Origin: Bacteroidota bacterium
GTDB taxonomy: Bacteria; Bacteroidota; Bacteroidia; Sphingobacteriales; Sphingobacteriaceae
Length of the DNA: 64,000 bases
NCBI GenBank assembly: GCA_040389105.1
Contig: JAZKAO010000029.1
Location: 390 to 64,389, forward strand
Direction of reading: 5' to 3'
Positions 23,821 to 61,796 of this stretch are shown here, in pieces. The notes under the pieces are model-generated. The model was given only the letters and a program-made list of their open reading frames with translations, searched no databases and was not told the origin of the DNA. The position numbers were made by a program, and so were the translations under genes. Position 1 is the first letter of the stretch; each line of letters starts with the position of its first letter.

Positions 23821-23970
23821 AGTCGGAAAAGACCGGAAGTCCGGAAGATATATTCTTAATGCGTCGTTCCTTACAGCAATGACGGAGGTTATAAAGCAAA
23901 AGAAGCGAACGGAAACCGTTCGCTTCTTTTGCTTTAATTCTATCTTCCGGACTTCCGGTCTTTTCCGACT
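23821..23970. repeat. 30 bp perfect inverted repeat (GTCCGGAAG family) enclosing a terminator
   Basis: AGTCGGAAAAGACCGGAAGTCCGGAAGATA (23821-23850) is the exact reverse complement of 23941-23970. Confidence 0.9.
23892..23936. terminator. Bidirectional intrinsic terminator
   Basis: 21 bp stem TAAAGCAAAAGAAGCGAACGG-aaa-CCGTTCGCTTCTTTTGCTTTA. Confidence 0.85.
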
Positions 23971-27886: not shown

Positions 27887-29674
27887 TTAGCTATTCTCTG
27901 CTTCTTCTAATAACTGTTTTTCATACAGTTCAAAATAGCTGCCTTTTAGTTGCATTAGGCTATTGTGGGTGCCCTGCTCAATAATTTGACCCTGGTCCAT
28001 CACCAGTATTTTGTCGGCATTTTTTATGGTTGATATGCGGTGGGCAATAATAATACTTGTTTTTCCATGCATAATATGGCCCAGGTTGTTCAATATTTCT
28101 TCTTCGGTACGGGTATCAACAGCCGATAAGCAATCGTCAAATATTAAAACCTGCGGCTGCTTAACAATAGCCCTGGCTATAGATACACGCTGTTTTTGCC
28201 CGCCCGATAAGGTGATGCCCCGTTCGCCAATCATGGTTTCAAAACCATTTTCAAACTCCATAATATTATCATATACGGCGGCATTCTTAGCGGCTTGCTT
28301 TACAACCGGCATATTTAATATATCGGCGCTAAAGGCAATATTATTGGCAATCGTATCCGAAAATAAAAATACTTCCTGCGGTACAAACCCAATTTGCGAT
28401 CGGTAATGCCCAAGGTTTTGCAGGTGCAGGGGTAACCTGTCTATCTCAATGTTACCGCCGGTACAATCGTACATGCGCATAATCAGGTTAGCTATGGTAG
28501 ATTTGCCCGAGCCTGTACGGCCAATAATAGCCACCATTTGCCCTGGTTCGGCCGTGAAAGATATGTTTTTTAAGGCCTGTATGCCCGTATCGGGATAAAT
28601 AAAGGATACATTATTAAAGTTGATCTGCCCATTTATTACCCGCTCTTCGCTGTTAATGGATACAATCTCGGGCTTGGTATGCAAAAATTCGTTTATCCGC
28701 TTTTGCGATGCCGCCGCGCGTTGTATAAGTGATGTAACCCAGCCTAATGATATTACCGGGAACATCAACTGGTTAAGATAAACAATAAATTCGGCCACGT
28801 TGCCGGGGGTAACGGTGCCTTTCATTACCTCTACACCGCCCACATATATTACTATGATGTTACTAATGCCAATCAGCAACAGCATCATGGGGTAAAACAA
28901 AGCCTGCACCTGCACAAGTGCCATAGATTGTGTTTTGTAGCCCTCGCTTTCCTTGGCAAAGCTTTCCTGCACAAATTTTTCGCGTACATACGATTTGATG
29001 ACCCTGATGCCCGAAAAATTCTCCTGCACAAAACCTGATAACGACGATAGCCGCTCCTGGATCTTTTCGCTGCGCGAGTTAATGATGTTATTTACATAAT
29101 AAATGCTGATCACCAATATGGGCATGGGTAAAATAGAGAAGATAGCCAGGCGCACATTTACGGTAAGCATGGCATATATTACCATTATAAAAAGCACAAC
29201 GGTATTAATGGTATACATAATGCCCGGCCCCAGGTACATGCGCACCCGGCTTACATCCTCGGTTACGCGGTTCATCAGGTCGCCGGTATTGTGGCGGCGG
29301 TAAAAGGCAAGCGATAGGTCCTGGTAGTGGCTGTAAATCTCGTTCTTTAAATCGTACTCAATATGGCGCGACATTAATATTAATGTTTGCCGCATAAAAA
29401 ACAGGAACATGCCCCTTAATAAGGCCAAAACCAGTACCAGTAAGCCAAATAACATCAGGCTGTGGCCAAAAATAGTGTAGATGACACCTTGCCTTTCAAA
29501 GCCGTTAAACAGGTGATAAGTGCCAATATTATCGGTAACTAAATTAAAGGCAATACGGATCACCTGCGCGGGCAATACGCCAAATATGTTGGAAATGATA
29601 ACAAACAATATACCCGGCAGCAGGCGCCAGCGGTACTTCCACAGGAATTTATTTAGATATGCAAGGTCTTTCAT
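27887..29674 (-). CDS. ABC exporter, fused permease/ATP-binding protein
   Basis: TM domain plus Walker A GRTGSGKS, LSGGQKQR, Walker B LIFDD. Confidence 0.95.
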   Translation of the reverse strand: MKDLAYLNKFLWKYRWRLLPGILFVIISNIFGVLPAQVIRIAFNLVTDNIGTYHLFNGFERQGVIYTIFGHSLMLFGLLVLVLALLRGMFLFFMRQTLILMSRHIEYDLKNEIYSHYQDLSLAFYRRHNTGDLMNRVTEDVSRVRMYLGPGIMYTINTVVLFIMVIYAMLTVNVRLAIFSILPMPILVISIYYVNNIINSRSEKIQERLSSLSGFVQENFSGIRVIKSYVREKFVQESFAKESEGYKTQSMALVQVQALFYPMMLLLIGISNIIVIYVGGVEVMKGTVTPGNVAEFIVYLNQLMFPVISLGWVTSLIQRAAASQKRINEFLHTKPEIVSINSEERVINGQINFNNVSFIYPDTGIQALKNISFTAEPGQMVAIIGRTGSGKSTIANLIMRMYDCTGGNIEIDRLPLHLQNLGHYRSQIGFVPQEVFLFSDTIANNIAFSADILNMPVVKQAAKNAAVYDNIMEFENGFETMIGERGITLSGGQKQRVSIARAIVKQPQVLIFDDCLSAVDTRTEEEILNNLGHIMHGKTSIIIAHRISTIKNADKILVMDQGQIIEQGTHNSLMQLKGSYFELYEKQLLEEAENS

Positions 29675-29680
29675 TTATAA

Positions 29681-29827
29681 AAGTCCGGATTCCGAAAGAC
29701 CGGAAGACCGAAAGTCAAAGATAGGGGATTAGTCCGGAAGTCCGAAAAACCGGAAGACCGGAAGCCGAATAAAACGCCGTGTATGACAATGCACTTACCG
29801 ACTTCCGGTCTTCCGGACTTACCGGCT
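29681..29827. repeat. Cluster of GTCCGGAAG/GACCGGAAG tandem units with inverted counterpart
   Basis: Forward runs at 29681-29715 and 29731-29767; inverted run CCGACTTCCGGTCTTCCGGACTT near 29798-29820. Confidence 0.85.
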
Positions 29828-29839
29828 AAACAAAAAACA

Positions 29840-29870
29840 TTTGCTTCCATCAAAAAAACACCTACTTTTG
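29840..29870 (+). promoter_or_regulatory. Bacteroidetes sigma70 promoter (-33 TTTG, -7 TACTTTTG)
   Basis: TTTG 29840-29843, 19 nt spacer, TACTTTTG 29863-29870. Confidence 0.7.
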
Positions 29871-29894: not shown

Positions 29895-30983
29895 ATGCCT
29901 GTACCTAATACATCAGATCTTTCCATATTTAGCCAGCTTACAGATTACGGGCATCAAAAAATAGTGTTTTGTAACGACCCCGATACCGGGCTCAAAGCCA
30001 TCATCGCCATTCACGATACTACATTAGGCCCTGCCCTTGGCGGTACCCGCATGTGGGCCTATAAAAACGAGCGCGACGCGCTGAACGATGTGCTGCGCCT
30101 GTCTAAAACCATGACTTATAAAGCATCCATCGCCGGTTTAAACCTGGGTGGTGGCAGCGCTGTTATTATTGGCGACGCGCGAAAGGATAAAACCGAGGCA
30201 CTAATGCGCAAATTTGGCCGTTTTATAAAGAATTTGAACGGAGAATTTATCACAGCCGAAGATATGGGCACCAACCCGCGCGATATGGAATACATCCGTA
30301 TGGAAACGCAGCACGTTACCGGTTACCCGGAAACCATTGGCGGCAGCGGCGATCCCTCGCCTATTACGGCCAGGGGTGTTTTTATGGGGATAAAGGCTTG
30401 TGTAAAGGAATTATATGGTAACGATACGCTGGCAGGCCGGTCGGTAATTGTACAAGGTGTAGGCCATGTAGGCGAAACCCTGGTGCGTTTACTGCGCGAT
30501 GAAAACACCAAAGTATACGTAAGCGATATTAACGAAGAGCGGGTAGGGCAAGTATCTAAAAAGTACGGTGCGCAACCGGTATCAAACAATAATATTTTTG
30601 ATATCGACGCCGATATTTACGCGCCATGCGCTTTAGGTGCTACTATTAATACCAGTACTATTAAAAAACTGAAATGCGCTATTATAGCCGGATCGGCCAA
30701 TAACCAGTTGGAAGACGAAGCCATACATGGCCGTATGTTGCTGGATAAGGGTGTATTACTGGCACCCGATTACGTGATAAATGCCGGCGGCCTGATTAAT
30801 TGCTATAGCGAACTGATGGGCTTTAGCCGCAAGCGTACGCTGCAGTTAACCGAAAATATTTACGATGCTACACGCAGCATTTTAAAATTATCGAAGGGCG
30901 AAAATATCCCTACTATTGAAGCTGCGAATAAAATAGCCGAGAAAAGAATAGCCGATATTAAAAAAATTAAAACATCATACTAA
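29895..30983 (+). CDS. Glu/Leu/Phe/Val dehydrogenase family protein (LeuDH-like), catalytic Lys replaced by Ser
   Basis: GPALGGTRMW, MTYK, GLNLGGGSAVII, ITAEDMG, QGVGHVG, LAPDYVINAGG; promoter supports ATG 29895. Confidence 0.9.
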   Translation: MPVPNTSDLSIFSQLTDYGHQKIVFCNDPDTGLKAIIAIHDTTLGPALGGTRMWAYKNERDALNDVLRLSKTMTYKASIAGLNLGGGSAVIIGDARKDKTEALMRKFGRFIKNLNGEFITAEDMGTNPRDMEYIRMETQHVTGYPETIGGSGDPSPITARGVFMGIKACVKELYGNDTLAGRSVIVQGVGHVGETLVRLLRDENTKVYVSDINEERVGQVSKKYGAQPVSNNNIFDIDADIYAPCALGATINTSTIKKLKCAIIAGSANNQLEDEAIHGRMLLDKGVLLAPDYVINAGGLINCYSELMGFSRKRTLQLTENIYDATRSILKLSKGENIPTIEAANKIAEKRIADIKKIKTSY

Positions 30984-31029: not shown

Positions 31030-31980
31030 ATGTTAAATAGAAGGCACCTTAGGGTAAAAGTATTACAGGCGTTATACGCGTATCATCAATCCGATTCGAA
31101 AGATGTTAAGTACCACGAGAAACAATTGCTGCAAAGCATTGATAAGGTGTACGAAATGTATATCTGGATGCTGTCCCTCGTTTCGGAAGTGATTGATTAC
31201 TCGGCAAACGATGCCGAAGAGCGTGCCAACAAACACCTGCCTACTGCCGATGACCTGAAACCTAACCTGAAGATACTTGAAAACAGGTTTATTACATCGT
31301 TAAAGCAAAATGCCGAATACATTACAGCAGTAAAAAGATACAAGATCTCGTGGGATTTTGATCCCGAATTGGCCCGTGCCTTATTCAATATCCTAAAAAA
31401 CTCGGACGAGTATAAAGAGTACCTGCAAAAAACCGACGATACCATATCAACCGATAAGGATATTATTAAGTTCATCTTTAAAAAAGTGATCCTGAAATCA
31501 TCATTAGCCGAGCAGGTTTTTGAAGATATGTTCATTTTTTGGCCGGTAGATAAGGATGTATTGCAGGCCCTGATTGCCAAAACATTCAAAAACTTCGCCT
31601 ATGATGAGCCTAAGCAAAATAAACTGGCCGAAGTAACCGGTAACTGGGTAGAAGACCGCGATTTTATTGTAGACCTGTTTACAAAAGCCATCCGTTACGA
31701 TACGCCATACCAGGAATTGATCAATACCAAAACCCAAAACTGGGAACCCGAGCGTATTGCCATGATGGATACCCTGCTGATGAAAATGGGGATTACCGAG
31801 TTTATTAACTTTAATTCGGTACCCGTAAAAGTAACCATAAACGAGTACCTGGAAATAGCCAAGGAATTTAGTACGCCTAAAAGTAATTCGTTTATAAACG
31901 GTATATTAGACAAAATTTTGTCGGAGCTTAAAACAGAGAACAAGATTAAGAAAATTGGCCGCGGTTTAATAGAAGAATAA
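31030..31980 (+). CDS. nusB: Transcription antitermination factor NusB (long Bacteroidetes form)
   Basis: MLNRRHLRVKVLQALY; C-terminal PVKVTINEYLEIAKEFS..KS..FINGILD. Confidence 0.95.
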   Translation: MLNRRHLRVKVLQALYAYHQSDSKDVKYHEKQLLQSIDKVYEMYIWMLSLVSEVIDYSANDAEERANKHLPTADDLKPNLKILENRFITSLKQNAEYITAVKRYKISWDFDPELARALFNILKNSDEYKEYLQKTDDTISTDKDIIKFIFKKVILKSSLAEQVFEDMFIFWPVDKDVLQALIAKTFKNFAYDEPKQNKLAEVTGNWVEDRDFIVDLFTKAIRYDTPYQELINTKTQNWEPERIAMMDTLLMKMGITEFINFNSVPVKVTINEYLEIAKEFSTPKSNSFINGILDKILSELKTENKIKKIGRGLIEE

Positions 31981-31981
31981 G

Positions 31982-32401
31982 ATGAAAACATTACTCATTG
32001 CCCTCCTTTCATTAAGTGTACTAACTGCCTGCAATAACGGCAGCTCAAAACCAATAGCAAGTGCAGCCCTCACTAAGGATAACGCGCCGGTAATTAAATT
32101 TGATAGCGAAGCCTTTGATTTTGGCAAGATAAAAACCGGCGATAAGGTTACGCACGAGTATAAGTTTAAAAACGAGGGTAAATCGCCCTTGATTATCAGC
32201 GATAGCTATGCTACCTGCGGCTGTACCAAGCCCGAGTGGCCGCACACCCCCATAAAACCGGGCGAGAGCGGCACGATAAAGGTTACCTTTAGCAGCGAAG
32301 GCAAATCGGGTTTGCAGGATAAGCAAGTTACCGTAGTAGCTAACACCCTGCCGGCAAACACAGTTGTACACCTGGTAGGCGAAGTAATAGAAAAGAAATA
32401 A
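31982..32401 (+). CDS. DUF1573 domain lipoprotein
   Basis: Lipobox LTAC; FDFGKI, ATCGCT, IKPGESG.I.V.F. Confidence 0.9.
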   Translation: MKTLLIALLSLSVLTACNNGSSKPIASAALTKDNAPVIKFDSEAFDFGKIKTGDKVTHEYKFKNEGKSPLIISDSYATCGCTKPEWPHTPIKPGESGTIKVTFSSEGKSGLQDKQVTVVANTLPANTVVHLVGEVIEKK

Positions 32402-32417
32402 TTTTTTAAATAATAGA

Positions 32418-32744
32418 ATGATAGCAACAGTTGTATTACAAGCCGCCAGCGGCTTGGGTAGTTTTAGCGGTATTGTACCAATGATATTGATTATTGTGGT
32501 ATTTTACTTTTTCATGATCCGTCCACAGGTTAAAAAGCAAAAGGACCAAAAGAAATACGTTGACGAATTGAAAATAGGAGATAAGGTAGTTACCACCGCG
32601 GGTATCCACGGTAAAATAGCCACCATAACCGATCTTTATTTTTTAGTTGAGGTTGATAATAACGTAAAGATCAAATTTGATAGATCGGCCATTTCGCTCG
32701 AATCATCAAAGGCATTGAACACACCGGTGGTCGAAAAAAAATAA
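32418..32744 (+). CDS. yajC: Preprotein translocase subunit YajC
   Basis: FYFFMIRPQ.KKQK, GDKVVTTAGIHG. Confidence 0.96.
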   Translation: MIATVVLQAASGLGSFSGIVPMILIIVVFYFFMIRPQVKKQKDQKKYVDELKIGDKVVTTAGIHGKIATITDLYFLVEVDNNVKIKFDRSAISLESSKALNTPVVEKK

Positions 32745-41911: not shown

Positions 41912-41955
41912 TTCTATCTTCCGGACTTCCGGTCTTTCCGTCTTTCTGACTTTCC
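41912..41955. repeat. GTCCGGAAG-family repeat (reverse orientation)
   Basis: TTCTATCTTCCGGACTTCCGGTCTTT (41912-41937) is identical to 23938-23963. Confidence 0.9.
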
Positions 41956-43986: not shown

Positions 43987-44033
43987 ATATGTGATCTTCC
44001 GGACTTTCTGTCTTTCCTGACTTCCGGACTATT

Positions 44034-61759: not shown

Positions 61760-61796
61760 AAAGTCCGAAAGACCGGAAGTTGGAAAGTCCGAAAGA
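61760..61796. repeat. GTCCGGAAG-family tandem units upstream of tgt
   Basis: GAAAGTCCGAAAGACCGGAAGTTGGAAAGTCCGAAAG. Confidence 0.8.

Follow-up and report, generated by a model that had tools for sequence, protein, structure and literature searches.

In leucine dehydrogenase (LeuDH/Bcd; EC 1.4.1.9), Lys80 (Geobacillus/Bacillus LeuDH numbering) is the general base that activates water against the iminium intermediate and stabilises the oxyanion (PMC6033044, PMC12018205). According to the citation of Sekimoto 1993 in PMC12018205, Geobacillus LeuDH with K80A, K80Q or K80R keeps about 1.5% activity and is rescued by exogenous amines. The K80A variant of Bacillus subtilis Bcd forms a stable hexamer, is devoid of detectable activity and fails to complement (PMC12181280). 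In phenylalanine dehydrogenase (PheDH), the equivalent Lys78 has been proposed to hold the keto oxygen, with the carbonyl carbon 5.1 Å from C4 of NADH, and in this way to prevent direct reduction of the keto acid to a hydroxy acid (PMC6033044). Here we analysed a stretch of 64,000 nt from a metagenome-assembled Mucilaginibacter genome (GCA_040389105.1, contig JAZKAO010000029.1, positions 390 to 64,389; hereafter the window), in which the gene at positions 29895–30983 (+) encodes a LeuDH orthologue with a serine in place of Lys80. A preliminary description, made from the sequence alone, had recognised the gene as a LeuDH homologue without its catalytic lysine and had given this lysine a role in Schiff-base chemistry, which is imprecise, as the literature cited above describes a general base.

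Dehydrogenase homologues that lack the catalytic lysine are already known. Thermus GdhA is an inactive ELFV homologue that serves as a leucine-responsive regulatory subunit (PMC9570180; bioRxiv 10.1101/2025.10.31.685773). ADLP of Thermus thermophilus (TT_C1082), a pseudoenzyme, senses NAD+ and regulates a CoA transferase; in this homologue of alanine dehydrogenase (AlaDH), the catalytic lysine is replaced by A, S, G, D or T, while NAD binding is kept (bioRxiv 10.1101/2025.10.31.685773). In both cases the protein is an accessory copy that arose by duplication alongside a functional enzyme, whereas here it is the only LeuDH orthologue of the genome that has lost the lysine, a loss that occurred at least seven times in one genus and was followed by purifying selection. 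What is new is a lysine loss that is single-copy, orthologous and highly recurrent within a genus. Neither natural Lys80-less LeuDHs nor a LeuDH of Mucilaginibacter or other Sphingobacteriaceae were found in the literature searched.

Identity of the gene and replacement of Lys80

The open reading frame (ORF) at 29895–30983 (+) translates without a stop codon into a protein of 362 amino acids (P0001). It has the two-domain architecture of the ELFV superfamily, with an N-terminal dimerisation and substrate domain (ELFV_dehydrog_N, PF02812; 109 bits against a cut-off of 25.3, E = 1.5e-31) and a C-terminal Rossmann domain (ELFV_dehydrog, PF00208; 84 bits against a cut-off of 23.4, E = 1.8e-23). 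The best full-length matches in HMMER comparisons were the solved LeuDHs 8gxd, 6acf, 8hpe, 3vpx and 1leh (E = 6e-122 to 2e-113), with tryptophan dehydrogenase (TrpDH; 3e-102) and PheDH (~1e-52) scoring below them. No NCBIfam equivalog was passed, the top-scoring one being ScyB TrpDH with 416 bits against a cut-off of 600. An AlphaFold2 model of the protein (predicted local distance difference test score 83.7, predicted template-modelling score 0.84) was compared with LeuDH 8gxd and 6acf using Foldseek, which gave template-modelling (TM) scores of 0.88–0.89 and root-mean-square deviations of 2.6–2.8 Å; identity to LeuDH structures was 49–52% in the structural alignment. The protein thus shares fold and approximate length with the described LeuDH/Bcd enzymes (6ACF; 1LEH of Lysinibacillus sphaericus; 8GXD of Exiguobacterium; B. 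subtilis Bcd). It is the single LeuDH-type gene of its genome, and we identify 29895–30983 as a single-copy, positionally conserved Bcd-type ELFV leucine dehydrogenase orthologue of Mucilaginibacter.

In the HMMER alignments, GLNLGGG-S-AVIIGD of the window protein lines up with GLNLGG(G/A)-K-(A/T)VIIGD of the solved LeuDHs. Codon 88 (AGC, 30156–30158, +), which is in frame (offset 261 = 87 × 3; local protein sequence GLNLGGGSAVIIGD), thereby encodes a serine at the position of the general base, and the missing catalytic lysine of the preliminary description is borne out. From this alignment, Ser88 is predicted to lie in the active site. When the source run was assembled independently (Logan; X1, depth 15.6), the ORF came out with 0 differences. 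Codon 88 is also covered, with no listed difference, by contigs X2 and X3, which come from close strains in soil metagenomes of another study. Moreover, the closest 13 database homologues (84–96% identity) all carry serine or threonine at this position. The earlier remark that AGC is two substitutions away from the lysine codons agrees with the codon path proposed below, and asparagine forms exist in relatives; the serine is also not limited to one assembly. Since the independent assembly and the related strains agree, an assembly or sequencing error at codon 88 was rejected. The replacement of Lys80 is real, inherited and selected.

We also searched the complete alignment for a catalytic lysine that had migrated to another position, and no column was found that gains lysine in the Lys-less orthologues. 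R121, H132 and R210 are somewhat enriched in the Lys-less orthologues, yet they are common in Lys-type ones as well.

Unlike Lys80, the other residues that characterise LeuDH/Bcd, namely K68, D115, N261/N262, the GxGxxG loop and the NAD-specifying aspartate, are conserved in the window protein. The equivalent of the carboxylate-binding Lys68 is Lys76 of the MTYK motif (codon AAA, 30120–30122, +), which is invariant in 40 Lys-less and 41 Lys-bearing orthologues. Codons 123–124 (30261–30266, +) encode Asp123 of the AED motif (30261–30263), equivalent to the catalytic, amino-group-binding Asp115, and a methionine at the position of Val116. The dinucleotide-binding loop GVGHVG comprises residues 188–193 (30456–30473, +), with Asp211 (VSDI) further on. 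The three motifs that had been listed as intact (MTYK, the aspartate of AED and G.G.VG) are thus all present. In addition to Lys76, Asn269 (equivalent to N261, which like Lys68 binds the carboxylate) and Asp123 (D115) are invariant throughout the 40 Lys-less orthologues, as are G188, G190, V192, G193 and D211 (G180, G182, V184, G185 and D203), the last being the acidic residue at the end of beta-2. The column equivalent to Asp115 is aspartate in all 40 Lys-less orthologues and glutamate in 5 of the 41 Lys-bearing ones.

Recurrent loss of Lys80 in Mucilaginibacter

To place the serine in its evolutionary context, 80 species-level orthologous loci were taken from species-representative genomes. 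Position 80 is lysine in 41 of them, tyrosine in 20, serine in 13, asparagine in three, methionine in two and threonine in one, and no stop codon interrupts any of the ORFs. Among the 120 closest database proteins (80–96% identity), 88 carry lysine, 25 serine, four tyrosine, two threonine and one methionine. Lys80 is present in 104 of 107 sequences of a comparison set centred on Pedobacter and Daejeonella, in 119 of 119 sequences of a second Bacteroidota set and in 143 of 150 representatives of the LeuDH family at 50% identity. Loss of Lys80 is concentrated in the Mucilaginibacter group.

The maximum-likelihood tree requires at least seven changes between lysine and other residues (eight with more sequences) and 12–14 residue changes in total. 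A single origin of the Lys-less set was rejected by the approximately unbiased (AU) test (p = 1.3e-7, difference in log-likelihood 210) with the active-site columns removed. The window sequence groups with 15 sequences, including those of M. yixingensis, M. myungsuensis and M. straminoryzae (SH-aLRT 86), and this subclade of 16 sequences carries serine or threonine throughout, so that the serine belongs to a clade in which the replacement is conserved. The codons concerned are one step apart along AAR (K)–AAY (N)–AGY (S)–ACY (T), along AAY (N)–TAY (Y)–TCN (S) and along AAG (K)–ATG (M), which would provide a stepwise route between the residue states. All replacements are neutral residues (S, T, N, Y and M), and charged residues never occur.

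In Mucilaginibacter litoreus, two identical Tyr-type LeuDH loci (L028 and L029) were found about 139 kb apart on one contig. Their distances to the ABC exporter and nusB genes are equal, which points to either a large segmental duplication or a duplication in the assembly.

The repeated loss bears on the idea that the protein is still a leucine dehydrogenase in attenuated or compensated form, for which a residual rate or water- or substrate-assisted catalysis suffices and reduced activity is tolerated or even favoured. A 50- to 100-fold loss of activity that was fixed at least seven times is hard to square with selection for catalysis, and Lys80 is retained in most sequences of all three comparison sets. 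The Geobacillus mutants, with the roughly 1.5% activity and the amine rescue cited in PMC12018205, are in line with such an enzyme, whereas Bcd K80A showed neither activity nor complementation (PMC12181280). Strong purifying selection has preserved the remaining catalytic and binding residues, which would also fit a weak dehydrogenase, and a branched-chain aminotransferase (see below) can carry most of the flux, so that a weak enzyme may suffice. However, the alignment contains no compensating lysine, and the residues around Lys80 drift once the lysine is lost. We consider an attenuated LeuDH rather unlikely, but still a serious rival.

Purifying selection and remodelling of the active site

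Ratios of non-synonymous to synonymous substitutions (dN/dS) were obtained as pairwise Nei–Gojobori estimates, for which many dS values are near saturation (about 0.9 to more than 1.6 in the Lys-less clades). In wholly Lys-less clades, dN/dS was 0.021 for the Met clade, 0.045 for the Ser/Asn clade (10 species), 0.052 for the Tyr clade (19 species) and 0.032 for the Ser/Tyr clade, compared to 0.022–0.040 in Lys-bearing clades. Of the differences between the window gene and close strains, 38 of 40 are synonymous. The Lys-less proteins are clearly functional, and relaxation of selection is at most mild.

These values leave very little room for a decaying gene that drifts neutrally towards loss, or for a sequencing or assembly error. 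Two observations would fit some decay, namely the outright deletion of the gene in about 17% of the genus, which shows that some backgrounds can do without it, and a dN/dS of 0.045–0.052 in the large Lys-less clades against 0.024–0.033 in large Lys clades. On the other hand, a stop codon or frameshift occurs in none of 81 orthologues, and dN/dS stays at about 0.05 within Lys-less clades at a synonymous divergence above 1; the synonymous strain differences and the confirmation of codon 88 in independent data speak against decay and error alike. Intact ORFs, dN/dS, strain data and the independent assembly exclude decay or artefact for practical purposes.

Loss of the lysine is accompanied by changes in its surroundings. 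Positions 40, 42, 43, 76, 81, 112, 113 and 116, which are located on the strands that surround Lys80 and form the active site, are invariant in the 41 Lys-type sequences and variable in the Lys-less ones, where the changes are partly convergent. The Tyr clade (about 19 species) carries a near-fixed set comprising L40F, G42S, C69, L76M, S81 and A113S, and T43V, T112A and A113G have appeared more than once, in different Ser/Thr lineages. Val116, invariant in the 41 Lys-bearing orthologues, is replaced by methionine or leucine only in three Lys-less clades (C1, C6 and C7); V116M is common to the clade of the window protein. In the side-chain pocket, the window protein keeps L40 and A113 and differs from LeuDH/Bcd by V291L and V294C, two changes that are common to Lys-bearing orthologues of the Sphingobacteriaceae. 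Where Lys-type orthologues are nearly invariant, it departs from them only by K80S, V116M, A197T and K303R. The window protein is a mild case of pocket change.

Such remodelling would be in line with an altered chemistry, in which the Lys80-free pocket would still hold a 2-oxo or 2-imino acid close to NAD(H), but for a reaction that does not need activated water. Examples would be the NADH-dependent conversion of a 2-oxo acid to a 2-hydroxy acid, or an oxidation or reduction that stops at the imino acid. Removal of the lysine could lift the block on hydroxy-acid formation that has been proposed for PheDH (PMC6033044). Conservation of D115, K68, N261/N262 and the NAD site is strict, the residues at position 80 are neutral without exception, and both the new set of the Tyr clade at positions 40, 42, 69, 76, 81 and 113 and the convergence of T43V, T112A and A113G in Ser/Thr clades suggest selection on a new active-site configuration. 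However, five chemically different residues at position 80 speak against a specific new catalytic residue, and the window protein is almost without pocket changes beyond K80S and V116M. The gene context shows no hydroxy-acid or imine pathway, and the literature searched documents no ELFV protein with such an activity. An altered chemistry appears less likely than a binding-based role but is a serious rival, somewhat better placed than an attenuated LeuDH.

Gene content of the genome and the genus

Apart from the LeuDH gene, the genome contains one ELFV gene, which encodes a glutamate dehydrogenase (GluDH) of 477 amino acids that has 33% identity to the window protein and an intact lysine in its GGAKGG motif. 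A LeuDH paralogue with the lysine, which the preliminary description had proposed to look for, was found neither in this genome nor in 121 genomes of the genus. The LeuDH orthologue occurs in 101 of these 121 genomes, and two full-length copies occur in none.

This gene content argues against a regulatory subunit that forms a hetero-oligomer with a catalytic paralogue in the style of Thermus GdhA/GdhB, an analogy that had been drawn in the preliminary description. Like the window protein, GdhA of the T. thermophilus GdhA/GdhB heterohexamer is an ELFV member, and it is an inactive yet retained, leucine-responsive subunit (PMC9570180; bioRxiv 10.1101/2025.10.31.685773), which gives the analogy its appeal. 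GdhA, however, needs the catalytic paralogue GdhB, and the window genome has no second LeuDH-type gene. GdhA furthermore lies in the GluDH branch, and the window protein has only 23–24% identity to chains A and B of the Thermus enzyme in a structural alignment. The Lys-less genes are positional orthologues without duplicates. A heteromer of this kind is thus largely refuted by the absence of a catalytic paralogue in genome and genus, and we regard it as very improbable.

The LeuDH gene is absent from 17 of 95 high-quality genomes of the genus. In seven gene-less genomes (L091–L097), the ABC exporter gene directly adjoins nusB at a distance of 226–431 nt, which indicates that LeuDH was cleanly deleted. 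Genes for an IlvE-II branched-chain aminotransferase (415 bits; cut-off 307) and for a 2-oxoacid dehydrogenase with fused E1 alpha and beta subunits are present in the window genome. With these enzymes, the interconversion of amino and keto acids is independent of LeuDH. Judging from this gene content, LeuDH catalysis is probably dispensable in the window genome and in the genus.

A possible binding-based role of the Lys-less protein

Strong purifying selection in the absence of the catalytic lysine, together with intact binding residues, indicates that the candidates to be considered are a ligand-binding or regulatory function or an altered chemistry. This part of the earlier proposal of a sensor, a regulatory subunit or an altered enzyme stands, whereas the subunit of a catalytic partner does not. 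The explanation that we prefer, with a probability of about 45%, is regulation through ligand binding, as in pseudoenzymes or trigger enzymes. The Lys-less protein would still fold and oligomerise like LeuDH and would presumably bind NAD(H) and a 2-amino or 2-oxo acid, while canonical oxidative deamination would be slowed to a small fraction of its usual rate, as mutants of enzymes from other species suggest. It would be kept for a role that is independent of the lysine but needs an intact ligand pocket, most likely the sensing of a metabolite or of the redox state with an effect on some partner, and the branched-chain aminotransferase would take over the interconversion of branched-chain amino and keto acids. 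Since the protein was retained after each of many independent losses of the lysine, the lysine-independent role probably already existed in the Lys-bearing ancestor; otherwise each of at least seven losses would need a newly evolved function.

A precedent for such a dual function within the ELFV superfamily is provided by RocG and GudB of B. subtilis, trigger-enzyme GluDHs in which one protein combines a catalytic role with regulatory protein binding and in which the two roles are separable by mutation. RocG keeps its catalytic lysine. A dual function of this type would explain repeated loss of the lysine with retention of the protein, but no regulatory partner is known or predicted for the Mucilaginibacter protein. 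The resemblance to ADLP concerns the pattern only, as varied residues replace the catalytic lysine across a clade while substrate and NAD(H) residues are kept. ADLP belongs to the AlaDH/PNT family and originated by duplication next to a canonical AlaDH; its gene adjoins that of its target, and its non-catalytic regulation has been demonstrated. The window protein, by contrast, is an ELFV member whose gene is neither duplicated nor accompanied by a canonical copy or an adjoining candidate target gene. The laboratory variants K80A/Q/R (Sekimoto et al. 1993, as far as covered by the later citation) and Bcd K80A are altered at the same position, and their fold and oligomeric state survive. In contrast to these engineered single mutants, the natural change was fixed repeatedly and was followed by purifying selection and changes of the pocket.

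Several observations weigh against a binding-based regulatory role. A second role cannot be essential, given that the gene is missing from about 17% of the genus. We found no partner gene tied to the Lys-less state, as the neighbours are identical in 80 of 80 loci. A residual activity of 1–2% could matter physiologically. The co-substitutions of the Tyr clade look like a re-tuned active site rather than a passive pocket, which would favour altered catalysis. Finally, the high conservation of the binding site, with 23 of 24 substrate- and cofactor-site residues invariant in the 40 Lys-less sequences compared to 131 of 368 columns overall, refers to residues listed in advance from general knowledge of LeuDH and PheDH structures.

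A more far-reaching version of the argument may be considered, albeit tentatively and as probably too bold. A second, Lys80-independent function would predate the losses, and the S, T, N, Y and M alleles would be natural separation-of-function variants of it. This function might be that of a sensor, i.e. a single-copy dehydrogenase turned into a sensor of NAD(H) and branched-chain metabolites without a catalytic paralogue, or it might be a new ELFV reaction such as NADH-dependent reduction of 2-oxo acids, which the lysine would normally prevent. The Tyr clade with its fixed six-residue change of the pocket would then represent the most derived form.

Genomic context

Upstream of the LeuDH gene lies a divergent gene for an MsbA-like ATP-binding cassette (ABC) exporter (ABC_membrane and ABC_tran domains; 27887–29674, −), which is the conserved neighbour on this side. 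Downstream, nusB (316 amino acids; 31030–31980, +) follows after 46 nt and is itself followed by genes for a DUF1573 protein (31982–32401) and YajC (yajC, 32418–32744). The position upstream of nusB that had been noted for the window is shared by the relatives: the order LeuDH–nusB–DUF1573–yajC, on the same strand and with a gap of 24–79 nt to nusB, was found in 80 of 80 loci with any residue at position 80. Because every locus has the gene upstream of nusB, the Lys-less genes are positional orthologues and not paralogues. As the arrangement is the same for Lys-bearing orthologues, it is uninformative on the Lys-less state. It differs from that of LeuDH/Bcd in that the window gene is not set in a bkd-type operon. 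No terminator-like site was found between LeuDH and nusB, and co-transcription of the two genes is therefore likely. A search for RNA runs containing the window stretch returned none.

Promoters of Bacteroidetes follow the consensus TTTG/TAnnTTTG. By eye, a candidate promoter of this type was recognised at 29840–29870 (+), with TTTG at 29840–29843, a spacer of 19 nt and TACTTTTG at 29863–29870; it ends 24 nt before the ATG of the LeuDH gene. A scan with the sigma-70 consensus, which is uninformative for a Bacteroidetes genome, yielded no site upstream of LeuDH. The clean promoter of the preliminary description is thus supported by the TTTG/TACTTTTG pair seen by eye, but not by the sigma-70 scan.

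The spacer between the ABC exporter and LeuDH genes of the window contains a dispersed palindromic intergenic repeat built on CCGGAAGNCCGRAA, which has 10 matches in the window compared to 0.14 expected by chance. Sites of the repeat are located at 29691–29829, 23833–23958, 41919–41932, 44014–44027 and 61765–61778. The copy in the spacer has imperfect inverted arms of 36 nt. The repeat resembles a repetitive extragenic palindromic (REP) element or a miniature inverted-repeat transposable element (MITE) of this genome.

Longer spacers between the two genes in some Lys-less loci hold unrelated genes, namely a GNAT gene and a glyoxalase-like ORF in L066 and a gene for a Cys-rich peptide in L039. 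The latter, an ORF of 79 amino acids (L039, 3535–3774, +) with a Gly-Gly motif and a Cys-rich tail, lies upstream of a Tyr-type orthologue, between the ABC exporter and LeuDH genes. It resembles a bacteriocin precursor and occurs in one species.

The NusB domain of the nusB product is C-terminal and covers residues 199–297 only, so that about 200 N-terminal residues are without a Pfam match. This long form of NusB is conserved in all related loci. Outside the window, beside the GluDH gene on contig C16 of the same genome, an ORF of at least 340 amino acids (L002, 2–1021, −) matches RVT_1 (E = 1.2e-9). It runs off the end of the locus and may encode a reverse transcriptase of the retron or defence type.

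Implications

The window protein lacks one defining feature of LeuDH and should not be annotated as a working EC 1.4.1.9 enzyme until it has been assayed. In about half of the Mucilaginibacter species, the annotation 'leucine dehydrogenase' is probably wrong in the metabolic sense, which affects models of branched-chain amino-acid catabolism and of the supply of iso-fatty-acid primers in soil Bacteroidota. The question is readily testable, since cultured type strains exist for each residue state; cultured strains with known orthologues include M. yixingensis (Ser), M. myungsuensis (Thr), M. lappiensis (Tyr), M. glaciei (Met) and, for Lys, M. flavidus and Mucilaginibacter sp. X5P1. For M. yixingensis, which belongs to the Ser clade of the window protein, a barcoded transposon library is available in strain YX-36 (PMC13440311). 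The recurrent loss of the lysine is a natural experiment, and it implies a lysine-independent function of a textbook enzyme that has so far gone unrecognised.

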